Below the pieces are notes generated by a model, which was not told where the DNA came from, ran no database searches, and worked only from the letters and a program-made list of their open reading frames with translations. Below, piece after piece: positions 61,404-64,000 of a stretch of DNA of 64,000 bases. Within the stretch, counting starts at the first letter, position 1; each line of letters begins with the position of its first letter. A program made the position numbers and the translations under genes. Source of the DNA: an uncultured Thermoplasmatales archaeon (GTDB lineage Archaea > Thermoplasmatota > E2 > DHVEG-1); contig CAZWQV010000001.1 of assembly GCA_964636235.1 (NCBI GenBank), forward strand, positions 13,022-77,021, read 5' to 3'.

Positions 61404-61754
61404 TTATTCTTCTAATTTTGCAAGGGTTTTTTTTATTGCCATATACCATTGTTCAAGACAACGTTCTGCATGTTTTTTTATCGTTTTATTATCCAAACAT
61501 GTATAGACATGATAATAGCCGCCTTGTGCGAGGTTTCTAGTTATTTTGTCACACATTCCACAATTCGCTAATTTTTGTAATGATCGATAAACCGTGCTTC
61601 TTTCTTTATCAAGTTTTTTTGCTAATTCATCTGCTCTAAGCTCTCCAGATTTTTTGAGCAATTTATATACTTCAATATCTAAGTTATTCAGATTAAAGAC
61701 ACATTTTACTGCATCATCGCATTGAAGGTTTTTGGTATCATCCAAAACTCTCAT
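61404..61754 (-). CDS. Small winged-helix (TrmB/MarR-like) transcriptional regulator
   Basis: 116 aa; HTH region LRADELAKKLDKERSTVYRSLQKL; divergent from trxA. Confidence 0.5.
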   Translation of the reverse strand: MRVLDDTKNLQCDDAVKCVFNLNNLDIEVYKLLKKSGELRADELAKKLDKERSTVYRSLQKLANCGMCDKITRNLAQGGYYHVYTCLDNKTIKKHAERCLEQWYMAIKKTLAKLEE

Positions 61755-61843
61755 CTAAAACAACATATTCAATTTCAAATATATAATGGTTGTGTTAAAT
61801 TAATGCACAAACGTTATATAGTACTTAAAACATACAATAAATA

Positions 61844-62254
61844 ATGACAGACGAGTTAGCAGCAATTAAAAGAAAAAAACTCGAAGAATTAAAAAAGAGA
61901 TATTTAACTGGAGGAAATGACATGGAAAATATGCCAAATACACCACTAGATGTTAAAGATGCGAATTTTAATGATTACATTAGCAAATATGATACAATTG
62001 TTATTGATTGTTGGGCTCCCTGGTGTGGACCTTGCAGGATGATCGCACCAGTTATTGAGGATCTGGCAAAAGAAATGCAAGGAAAAATCGTTTTTGGAAA
62101 ATTAAATGTTGATGAAAACCAATCGACATCAACACAATATGGGATAATGAGTATTCCTTCATTACTTGTATTTAAAAACGGAAAACTGGTTGACAAGATT
62201 GTCGGTGCAATGCCCAAACCGATGCTTAAAACAAAACTTGAATCATATATGTAG
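61844..62254 (+). CDS. trxA: Thioredoxin
   Basis: WAPWCGPC active site; 136 aa. Confidence 0.88.
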   Translation: MTDELAAIKRKKLEELKKRYLTGGNDMENMPNTPLDVKDANFNDYISKYDTIVIDCWAPWCGPCRMIAPVIEDLAKEMQGKIVFGKLNVDENQSTSTQYGIMSIPSLLVFKNGKLVDKIVGAMPKPMLKTKLESYM

Positions 62255-62280
62255 TTACTTATATGGAGTTTGACCCTTAA

Positions 62281-62847
62281 ATGAGAAAAAAATGGATAGC
62301 CTTTACGTTAATACTTGTTATTACTGTAACAACTGCATTAACAGGATGCACGAATACATCACAAAACACAGATAACATTAACAGTGGCACATCAGAAAAT
62401 TTCAGATTTGAACTGCCAGATGGAACAGATATGGAATTGAAAGATTATCGAGGAAAAATAGTCATCCTTGATATGTGGGCAACTTGGTGTCAACCCTGTC
62501 AATATCAAATGCTTGAATTGTTAAAAGCATATCAAAATTATTCAGATAATATTGAAATATTATCAATTAATGTCGATGCATCAGAAACCAATCAAGATAT
62601 CGTTGATTTTATCGATCTATTTGCAGACTATGGATATCATTTGAATTGGGTATTCGGTAATGAAGTTGATGACACCAGCAAATATAAAATTGAACCGAAT
62701 AGCGGCATTCCATCCATTTGTTTCTTTGATAGAGAGGGAAGAATTCTCTACAAACATGTTGGAGTTATGATGTATGATACCTTTCCAGCAGGTTGGACAG
62801 GGGAAAAAATATTATTAAAGGATAAAATCGATGAATATATTAAATAA
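62281..62847 (+). CDS. Extracytoplasmic thioredoxin-fold lipoprotein (TlpA/ResA-like thiol:disulfide oxidoreductase)
   Basis: Signal peptide with lipobox-like LTGC; WATWCQPC active site. Confidence 0.68.
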   Translation: MRKKWIAFTLILVITVTTALTGCTNTSQNTDNINSGTSENFRFELPDGTDMELKDYRGKIVILDMWATWCQPCQYQMLELLKAYQNYSDNIEILSINVDASETNQDIVDFIDLFADYGYHLNWVFGNEVDDTSKYKIEPNSGIPSICFFDREGRILYKHVGVMMYDTFPAGWTGEKILLKDKIDEYIK

Positions 62848-62880
62848 AATTTAATAACCAATAAAAAATAGAAAAGAGGT

Positions 62881-63396
62881 GTGAAAAAGCATATGAAATC
62901 AGCTATTCAAAAATCTAAAACATTCAAAGAACTATTGATTTTTTTAATATTTCTTTCAATATTGACATCTGCATTAATTGTATCGGCAGCTCCAACGATT
63001 AATATCGACCCTGCAAAACCAAAACCGAAAGAAACCATTGATATAACTGTCGCCATCACAGACGTAACACCTACATCAGTTCATTTTCTAATCCAAGAAT
63101 GCGAAGGAACAAGTCTTTGTCATCAAATAGAGAATATTACTCTTACTGAAACAAGTTCAAATGTATATACTGGCTCTTTTTCCTTACAATATGCAAAGGC
63201 AACATATATGCAATATACATTAAATGTTCAGACCGCAAGTGGATGGACACAATATGATGAAAATACAAAAGTGAATCTTGATTTATCAACAACATCAGAT
63301 GGCAATGGATCTAATGATTCACCGGGATTTGAATTTATCATTATGGCATTATCAATAATATTTATATCCTTCATACTCTATAGACGTTCTAGGTAA
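62881..63396 (+). CDS. Surface protein with PGF-CTERM archaeosortase sorting signal
   Basis: Signal peptide; Ser/Thr/Asn-rich linker then PGFEFIIMALSIIFISFILYRRSR (PGF + TM helix + basic tail). Confidence 0.6.
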   Translation: MKKHMKSAIQKSKTFKELLIFLIFLSILTSALIVSAAPTINIDPAKPKPKETIDITVAITDVTPTSVHFLIQECEGTSLCHQIENITLTETSSNVYTGSFSLQYAKATYMQYTLNVQTASGWTQYDENTKVNLDLSTTSDGNGSNDSPGFEFIIMALSIIFISFILYRRSR

Positions 63397-63398
63397 AA

Positions 63399-64000
63399 AT
63401 GAAATTACAGCTTAAACGTCTATATTCACAATTTCTTTTTTTTCTATCCGCAAATTTAGGTGCTTTAGGGATTAAATCAGGGTTTTGTTATCCTTTTTTT
63501 TATTGCAATGCATGTCCCGCAGCAGATGCCGCATGTCCGTTACGTGCAATTGAGGTAGGAGTCTTTAAAGGTAATTTTAACTTAAAACTAATCATATATC
63601 CGTTTCTTATTCTTGGAATAGCAGGCGTCATTACAGGTAGAGCATTTTGTGGATGGGCATGTCCAATTGGCCTTTTACAAAGAGGTACAGAACACTCTGC
63701 AAAGAAGGTAAAGAAAAAACGATGGTTACCTAGTTTAGAAGAATCTGAACATGAGCATCAGTTACGCTACATTAAATACTTGATTTTACTGATATTTGTT
63801 GTAATAACTCCAATTTTGATAGAATTTACTTTTACGGATATTTGTCCTGTTGGAATATTAACAGGAACCATACCAACTCTTATTTTAAATCCTGGAAAAT
63901 ATGTGCCAAGCTCCTATTTTTTTCCAGCTATGTTTATTTTTACCTTATTTATCATTCTAATCTTGACTATACGAAGAGGTTGGTGTCGCTATTTTTGTCC
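63399..64000 (+). CDS. NapH/MauN/CcoG-type membrane polyferredoxin (3' end outside window)
   Basis: Repeated R-x-(F/W)-C-x-(W/Y)-x-C-P motifs (GRAFCGWACPIG, RRGWCRYFCP) and CPVG between TM helices; frame open to window end. Confidence 0.5.
   Translation, partial: MKLQLKRLYSQFLFFLSANLGALGIKSGFCYPFFYCNACPAADAACPLRAIEVGVFKGNFNLKLIIYPFLILGIAGVITGRAFCGWACPIGLLQRGTEHSAKKVKKKRWLPSLEESEHEHQLRYIKYLILLIFVVITPILIEFTFTDICPVGILTGTIPTLILNPGKYVPSSYFFPAMFIFTLFIILILTIRRGWCRYFC

Follow-up and report, generated by a model that had tools for sequence, protein, structure and literature searches.

We analysed a 64-kb window (64,000 nucleotides) of a contig from an uncultured Thermoplasmatales archaeon, focusing on a block of thiol-redox genes at its 3′ end (61404–64000, G+C ~30%). 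On the plus strand, trx (61844..62254, 136 aa; WAPWCGPC, with WCGPC at 62021–62035) is followed by genes for a TlpA-like lipoprotein (62281..62847, 188 aa; WATWCQPC, with the WCQPC codons at 62485–62499), an immunoglobulin (Ig)-like protein with a Cys pair and a PGF tail, hereafter SURF (62893..63396, 167 aa), and a NapH-like membrane polyferredoxin (63399..64000), whose gene is cut by the window end after the first 200 of its 269 codons. A winged-helix regulator of 116 aa is encoded divergently on the minus strand (61404..61754). The open reading frames (ORFs) and motifs listed for this region in an initial annotation made from the sequence alone were all recovered in an ORF check of the window, and the gaps it gave between the first four co-oriented genes (26, 33 and 2 bp) are correct when the third gene begins at the alternative GTG start 62881 (171 aa). 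The ATG at 62893 is the more likely start, since GAGGTG lies 11 nt upstream, homologues begin with MK and the gene call on a sister contig agrees; the gap then becomes 45 bp.

Genes reaching beyond the window were read at full length from that sister contig, L001, a 105-kb Joint Genome Institute (JGI) contig whose DNA is 99.3% identical over 10.6 kb. The NapH-like homologue encoded there, P0001 (269 aa), is identical to the window protein over its 200 residues, and the window TlpA-like protein differs from the sister-strain protein by a single residue. L001 also revealed that the block, described as an operon of four genes, actually comprises five: co-orientation stood, and a fifth plus-strand gene, TRXL5 (L001 10814–11470, 218 aa), starts 3 bp past the NapH-like stop, just past the window end. 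A scan for sigma-70 promoters and terminators, uninformative for an archaeon, returned no terminator-like site within the block.

The trx product, proposed as a cytoplasmic thioredoxin, was confirmed at family level: it exceeds the TIGR01068 cut-off (122.5 against 96.8 bits), matches Pfam Thioredoxin (E = 2.4e-30) and contains WCGPC, with no signal peptide and no transmembrane (TM) segment in a hydropathy scan. The TlpA-like protein, proposed as an exported oxidoreductase, was likewise borne out. It matches Pfam AhpC-TSA (52 bits), Redoxin (42.3 bits) and Thioredoxin_8 (41.8 bits) above gathering scores of ~26–27, carries a TM segment at residues 6–24 in the hydropathy scan together with an N-terminal lipobox-like LTGC, and retains C.PC in at least 90% of 64 homologues. 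It lies below the NCBIfam equivalog cut-offs for ResA (78 against 170) and TlpA (54 against 230), and its TlpA/ResA-type assignment is a sequence-based one at family level only.

The window portion of the NapH-like ORF contains GRAFCGWACP and RGWCRYFC(P). Its cysteines are arranged, all on the plus strand, in a loop-1 motif, C30-x5-C36-x2-C39P-x5(6)-C46P (63486–63539), a first CX3CP (C84, C88; 63648–63665), a Cys-Pro in loop 3 (C149-P150; 63843–63848) and a second CX3CP (C196-x3-C200P, from 63984), followed past the window end by the two CxxCxxCxxxCP ferredoxin motifs of full-length P0001. None of these cysteines (C30, C36, C39, C46, C84/C88, C149, C196/C200 and the eight of the ferredoxin motifs) varies across 70 homologues. 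Extension of the contig, as the initial annotation had proposed, yielded a protein with two Fer4_5 half-domains and a 2×[4Fe-4S] ferredoxin domain; in Pfam, P0001 matches Fer4_5 twice and Fer4 once, and the truncated window protein matches Fer4_5, with a sub-threshold NapH/MauN match. The NapH/CcoG-type label holds at the level of the NapH superfamily and fails at that of the named families, as P0001 falls below the NCBIfam cut-offs for NapH (napH_ TIGR02163, 107.5 against 213.05; NapH NF007013, 100.5 against 234), CcoG (TIGR02745, 34.6 against 316.7) and NosR (43 against 1000).

In common with NapH, NosR, NirI and RdhC (PceC), P0001 has four TM helices, a CX3CP after TM2 and another after TM4, and a C-terminal 2×[4Fe-4S] domain with two CxxCxxCxxxCP motifs, the last being absent from RdhC. 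Unlike NapH, it has an additional invariant C-x5-C-x2-CP-x5-CP loop and a loop-3 Cys-Pro on its outer face, and scores below the curated cut-offs; when E. coli NapH was aligned, the CX3CP and ferredoxin motifs were common to both proteins and the loop-1 and loop-3 cysteines were all absent from NapH. An AlphaFold2 (AF2) model (predicted local distance difference test, pLDDT, 72.7; predicted template modelling score, pTM, 0.70) shows four long helices plus short helices, each of the latter starting directly after a Cys-Pro (C46P, C88P, C149P, C200P). Searches of the PDB by sequence and with Foldseek, using the NapH-like protein and its model, matched the ferredoxin domain only and returned no solved NapH-type membrane module. 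The beginning of loop 1, GFCYPFFYC (63480–63494), has GFCYP in common with the active-site sequence CADAGFCYPP of E. coli DsbD-alpha, a likeness around a redox cysteine that could be chance or convergence.

Counts of Lys plus Arg across 75 archaeal sequences are high at the N-terminus (3.0 in 8 residues), throughout loop 2 (9.9) and following TM4 (3.0), and low in loop 1 (2.2 in 32 residues) and loop 3 (0.6 in 27). By the positive-inside rule, this distribution predicts that the N-terminus, both CX3CP motifs and the ferredoxin domain are cytoplasmic and that loop 1 and the loop-3 Cys-Pro face outward. Given the requirements of Fe-S (iron-sulfur) and Tat biogenesis, outward-facing Fe-S clusters are hard to assemble in a Sec-inserted membrane protein, and for this reason the outer cysteines are probably redox-active thiols.

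A membrane polyferredoxin combined with an Ig-like extracytoplasmic domain is also seen in CcoG (FixG/RdxA), which belongs to the same Fer4_5/Fer4_18 superfamily. A CcoG-type reading would make the NapH-like protein a cupric or other metal reductase and the thioredoxin-fold and Ig-like proteins metallochaperones resembling Sco, PCuAC or CopC; we regard this as improbable. Unlike CcoG, the NapH-like chain ends after the ferredoxin domain with no in-chain FixG_C domain, the Ig-like Cys-pair protein is encoded by a separate upstream gene, and neither a cbb3 oxidase nor a copper ATPase forms part of the context.

SURF consists of a signal peptide, an Ig-like beta-sandwich, an N/G/D-rich linker and a C-terminus made of PGFE, a TM helix and RRSR. 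The 171-aa ORF ends in SPGFEFIIMALSIIFISFILYRRSR, and the tail itself, encoded at 63322–63393 after an N/G/S/D-rich stretch of linker, reads SPGFE-FIIMALSIIFISFILY-RRSR. In 37 aligned homologues PGFE, the TM helix and the basic tail are invariant, as are P40, P43, E69, C70 and C76; E69-C70-x5-C76 constitutes the Cys pair (Cys codons 63100–63102 and 63118–63120), and an NxS/T sequon and the basic C-terminus are also retained. The tail thus carries every sequence feature of a PGF-CTERM, archaeosortase A substrate, as had been suggested, although the window copy lies below every hidden Markov model threshold: Pfam and NCBIfam scans gave no PGF-CTERM match (PF18204, TIGR04126) for it and a Loki-CTERM score of 17.9 bits against a cut-off of 19.9, and Pfam PGF-CTERM (PF18204) matches five of the 37 relatives (best E = 5.8e-5). 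No second PGF-tailed ORF occurs within the 64-kb window. Homologue searches returned three proteins from the single sequence and 15 from a profile, with the word index as the limiting factor; the resulting alignment is shallow and the AF2 core is good. The earlier description as a surface protein therefore needs enlarging, in that SURF is more than cargo, being a conserved component with an invariant Cys pair.

TRXL5 is anchored by a TM segment at its N-terminus and contains both CLSC and a thioredoxin-like stretch, 'FLAFRADVCAACE'. Its homologues retain CLSC, a second CxxC and a Pro whose surroundings, G-x-P-M, are those usual for the cis-Pro loop of thioredoxins. The Pfam Thioredoxin model gives TRXL5 18 bits, below the cut-off of 23.5. 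A TRXL5 profile searched against the PDB retrieved almost only thioredoxins, tryparedoxins and protein disulfide isomerase, with weak E-values (0.012–0.8), and aligned both the CxxC and the GvPM cis-Pro loop.

To place the block in a wider context, we scanned a one-genome-per-species collection and obtained 79 Thermoplasmatota loci and one bacterial locus, whose ORFs were searched by phmmer with the window's proteins as queries. The archaeal loci include the estuarine-sediment bins SM1-50 and SG8-52-3, which we take to be Marine Benthic Group D (MBG-D)/Thermoprofundales. The order trx, TlpA-like, SURF, NapH-like, TRXL5 on one strand is present in 62 of the 79 loci, most others being cut by contig ends, with median gaps of 18, 18, −4 and 0 bp; trx heads the block in 65 loci, and TRXL5 was found in 76. 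Identity in these loci is only 56–66% for the NapH-like protein and 20–41% for SURF, and the persistence of the gene order despite this divergence indicates that it is maintained by selection. The NapH-like gene is, to judge from sequence, translationally coupled to those for SURF and TRXL5. In 30 of 57 archaeal loci, trx is preceded on its own strand by a small glutaredoxin-like gene (~86 aa, CMKC; for example L009 170–454 and L012 2951–3211); this gene, absent from the window, would bring the thiol-redox genes of the neighbourhood to six.

The initial annotation had placed the NapH-like polyferredoxin where a CcdA/DsbD transmembrane conduit would usually sit. A CcdA-family search with E. coli DsbD-beta (phmmer, E ≤ 10) found nothing resembling DsbD-beta/CcdA among the ORFs of the window and of the 79 archaeal loci, and P0001 has no match to Pfam DsbD (PF02683). 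The proposal is further supported, at the comparative level, by synteny, by the outward Cys motifs and by bacterial fusions described below.

The same neighbourhoods bear on whether the protein might be a conventional NapH-type respiratory quinol dehydrogenase serving an extracytoplasmic terminal reductase, with the thioredoxin genes mere neighbours. NapH homology spans residues 46–267, and NapH-like modules serve many reductases (PMC8238504), both of which would agree with such a role. The scores, however, lie under the NapH cut-offs, and the partners differ: the NapH module works with NapG, FMN-binding domains and terminal reductases, whereas here the neighbours are thioredoxin-fold proteins. 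No NapG/A/B, NosZ, RdhA, NirS or FMN-binding partner was found in any locus; the L001 locus contains no Nap, Nos, Rdh, FMN-binding or ApbE genes, and neither NapG nor NapA genes occur in L001 or among the recurrent neighbour families of the 79 loci. Carriers of the gut Lachnospiraceae type are, to our knowledge, generally without quinones, and covalent TlpA-like fusions speak against coincidence. We consider this alternative very unlikely.

The sole bacterial locus of the species scan, from a Lachnospiraceae metagenome-assembled genome, carries a TlpA-like lipoprotein gene directly upstream of its NapH-like gene, whose product is 36% identical and has the same motifs. Scanning metagenome contigs with this protein identified 80 bacterial loci in gut and rumen assemblies, all 80 with the same Cys motifs. 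A TlpA-like partner is present in 68 of them, encoded directly upstream in 48, directly downstream in five and fused in 15, and it is missing in only one of the loci having both flanks. The 15 fusions run from the ferredoxin domain through a K/R-rich segment, one extra TM helix and a linker into a TlpA-like domain (WATWCTPC, WYTTCGPC), and Pfam confirmed the Redoxin/AhpC-TSA domains; the extra helix implies that the ferredoxin and TlpA domains lie on opposite sides of the membrane. Because no other neighbour is conserved in bacteria, the minimal unit appears to be the NapH-like protein plus the TlpA-like protein. Chance co-location of the operon genes was considered and is ruled out by the synteny and fusion counts.

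These bacterial systems are also informative about a reading confined to the cytoplasm, in which the NapH-like protein would work as a membrane-bound ferredoxin:thioredoxin reductase on that side only, reducing the co-encoded thioredoxin and glutaredoxin, and the exported proteins would be independent or otherwise reduced. The position of trx at the head of the operon would fit, as would an Fe-S domain beside CX3CP cysteines, which resembles ferredoxin:thioredoxin reductase or Hdr logic. We find this reading highly improbable, as it accounts neither for the invariant Cys motifs that face outward, nor for the translational coupling with the genes of two exported Cys proteins, nor for the existence of bacterial systems that have no trx gene yet carry fused extracytoplasmic TlpA domains.

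An exhaustive search of 1.84 billion cluster representatives identified 8163 relatives at E ≤ 1e-3. Motifs and fusions were counted in the best 150 of these 8163 representatives (50% clustering): the full loop-1 motif is present in 93 of the 150, with a three-Cys variant in most of the others inspected, and 34 of the 150 have a C-terminal thioredoxin-like W..C..C extension. Redoxin, AhpC-TSA or Thioredoxin domains were confirmed in P0246, P0198, P0231 and P0144. A different fusion is seen in P0239, a metagenome representative of 789 aa in which an N-terminal Fer4_20 plus Pyr_redox_2 flavoprotein (GltD/NfnB-like) is joined to a NapH-like protein of the same subfamily. This architecture suggests a cytoplasmic donor, with NAD(P)H as the putative donor in some lineages.

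The P0239 fusion also helps to weigh a reversal of the electron flow, in which the system would carry out DsbB/VKOR-like oxidative folding and the NapH-like protein would pass electrons inward to its Fe-S clusters and on to an acceptor in the cytoplasm. Architecture and topology suit both directions equally, neither of which is fixed by the data, and the anchored TRXL5 with its two CxxC motifs could be DsbA-like. On the other hand, the NAD(P)H-type flavoprotein of P0239 is a donor module, a cytoplasmic thioredoxin and, in the 30 loci mentioned, the glutaredoxin-like gene are co-transcribed with the system, TlpA/ResA-type redoxins are, as a matter of general family knowledge, characteristically reductants, and low-potential 2×[4Fe-4S] domains are poor sinks for thiol-derived electrons. 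Inward flow is accordingly unlikely in our assessment.

Comparison with DsbD, CcdA and ScsB, whose partners are TlpA, ResA and CcmG, indicates that the same job may be done here, that is, the transfer of cytoplasmic reducing power to exported thioredoxin-fold proteins. The partner types of DsbD-type systems are matched by a cytoplasmic thioredoxin, a TlpA/ResA-like lipoprotein, a tethered thioredoxin-like domain and an Ig-like CX5C domain. The membrane component, in contrast, is unrelated: DsbD/CcdA has two membrane-embedded cysteines and no cofactor, whereas the NapH-like protein has four NapH-type helices, a cytoplasmic 2×[4Fe-4S] domain and CX3CP motifs. The archaeal order of Ig-like, membrane and thioredoxin-like components parallels the alpha, beta and gamma domains of DsbD, a parallel that we offer by analogy, as a hypothesis and not as a finding. 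E. coli DsbD alpha is an Ig-like domain with a CX5C pair, and hhalign aligned VHFLIQEC-x5-CH of SURF with LTVTYQGC-x5-CY of DsbD-alpha (C103/C109) at E = 0.006 and a probability of only 6%; the CxxC of TRXL5 was matched to the one in DsbD-gamma (E = 0.013). The two scores lie ~5 standard deviations above those of 150 residue shuffles and exceed all of them, a lenient control in that shuffling destroys strand patterns. Pfam DsbD_N (PF11412) gave E ~0.14 in just three of 37 SURF family members. The similarity of SURF and TRXL5 to DsbD-alpha and DsbD-gamma is only suggestive.

Taken together, these observations lead us to think it fairly probable that thiol-disulfide oxidoreductases outside the cytoplasm receive their reducing power through a transmembrane Fe-S conduit encoded at this locus, one that would do the work of DsbD/CcdA with the architecture of the NapH/NosR/RdhC module. 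The four rival readings discussed above appear to fit the data less well than this Fe-S conduit. The NapH membrane module is already regarded as a modular transmembrane electron-transfer unit that feeds extracytosolic redox (FMN) domains (PMC8238504, PMC5928378), just as DsbD is a unit feeding thioredoxin-like proteins (PMC8238504), and its CX3CP motifs have no role assigned as yet (PMC5928378). In the literature on NapH-type polyferredoxins and on TlpA/DsbD/CcdA systems, we found no description of a NapH-like protein paired with a TlpA or thioredoxin-fold protein.

In the mechanism we propose, low-potential electrons would enter the ferredoxin domain from the cytoplasm, with ferredoxin, an NAD(P)H flavoprotein of the kind fused in P0239 and possibly the co-encoded thioredoxin as candidate donors. 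The CX3CP cysteines on the cytoplasmic side would receive the electrons next, in a reaction resembling that of ferredoxin:thioredoxin reductase or Hdr. The possible logic is that of ferredoxin:thioredoxin reductase and HdrB, in which one-electron Fe-S centres serve a two-electron disulfide, here at CX3CP; the NapH-like protein has no sequence relationship to either enzyme, and the analogy is mechanistic only. From the CX3CP cysteines, electrons would move to the outward-facing Cys-Pro cysteines, and from there by thiol-disulfide exchange to TRXL5, SURF and the TlpA-like lipoprotein, which would in turn keep the cysteines of surface or secreted proteins reduced or repair them.

Several points weigh against this interpretation. 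The direction of electron flow, the donor, the physiological substrates and the route across the bilayer are all inferred, and the AF2 model is only moderate (pLDDT 72.7 overall and ~50 in the Cys loop). The CcdA negative is limited to the window and the 79 archaeal loci. Bacterial systems without the Ig-like and TRXL5 partners imply that neither is essential to the core, and the cytoplasmic thioredoxin and the Fe-S domain would be partly redundant as donors.

The divergent winged-helix regulator containing CGMC, also reported initially, was confirmed by its ORF and by a Pfam TrmB match (55.9 bits against a cut-off of 25.6). It lies below the NCBIfam cut-offs for Sta1 (70.3 against 80) and Lrs14 (49 against 90), and by sequence it is a TrmB/Lrs14/Sta1-like winged helix-turn-helix protein, an assignment at superfamily level and not as an equivalog. 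Cys12, Cys68 and Cys99 are kept in at least 90% of 28 homologues. Among the 57 loci with sufficient upstream sequence, 21 have the regulator divergently oriented less than 400 bp from trx, and this Cys-bearing protein may be a redox-responsive regulator. Beside it, on the minus strand at 60687–61250, is a gene for a protein of 187 aa, rich in Trp, Tyr and Cys, whose N-terminus weakly resembles a PRC-barrel and which has an apparent internal repeat ('TLNKTIEQLGRYWNK' / 'TLDKTLDELHQYWKD'); the gene is conserved beside that of the regulator in ~12 loci.

On the downstream side, 41 archaeal loci have a convergent gene for an anchored or secreted protein of ~415–490 aa (for example L009 3983–5428, minus strand) with a thioredoxin-like EEGTATWCxxCP region and Omp28 and Big_7 domains, which may be a substrate or an extra component. 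In the window's strain, this place is occupied by a hydrogenase cluster: on L001 (11481–16008, minus strand), convergent genes encode a HycI protease and the large and small subunits of a [NiFe]-hydrogenase, and a 642-aa protein of the cluster combines Fer4_22, FAD_binding_6, NAD_binding_1 and DHODB_Fe-S_bind domains. By its sequence the cluster looks like group 3b (sulfhydrogenase). We considered it as a conserved electron source and rejected it, as it adjoins the operon in only ~9 of 79 loci; it is probably not part of the redox system.

Elsewhere in the window, a complete uvrA-uvrC-uvrB cluster (53024–59322) lies upstream of the redox operon. Its UvrB ORF (608 aa) begins with TTG right at the Walker A motif, so the start may be misplaced or the N-terminus short. 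Further upstream, 44681–47632 encodes a helix-turn-helix protein (123 aa, minus strand), a 281-aa Cys-rich Fe-S protein and a 544-aa protein that looks, by eye, like a hybrid-cluster protein; this group could be another redox-stress unit.

Extracytoplasmic thiol reduction supports cytochrome maturation and disulfide isomerisation, allows oxidised surface proteins to be repaired and may contribute to the reduction of extracellular thiols. It is generally ascribed to DsbD/CcdA-type proteins that receive their electrons from thioredoxin. With considerably more reserve than for the locus itself, we suggest that NapH-like proteins with the outward C-x2-CP-x5-CP loop may stand beside DsbD/CcdA as a third kind of transmembrane thiol reductase, one that depends on a cofactor and takes its electrons from ferredoxin or NAD(P)H instead of thioredoxin. 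This class would be common to sediment archaea and gut and rumen Firmicutes, and its archaeal form would be a 'split DsbD' in which the Fe-S membrane core is a protein separate from both the Ig-like CX5C component and the anchored thioredoxin-like one. The family is large and spans two domains of life, with uncultured Thermoplasmatota of the benthos on one side and Firmicutes abundant in gut and rumen on the other, and the bacterial single-chain fusions provide a simple experimental handle. If the interpretation is correct, the CX3CP motifs of NapH, NosR and RdhC would gain a function as redox-active cysteines relaying electrons across the membrane, and thousands of genes annotated only as '4Fe-4S binding protein' or 'NapH' would gain a name. 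In strict anaerobes, metabolism based on low-potential ferredoxin or NAD(P)H would then bear directly on the redox state of surface thiols.

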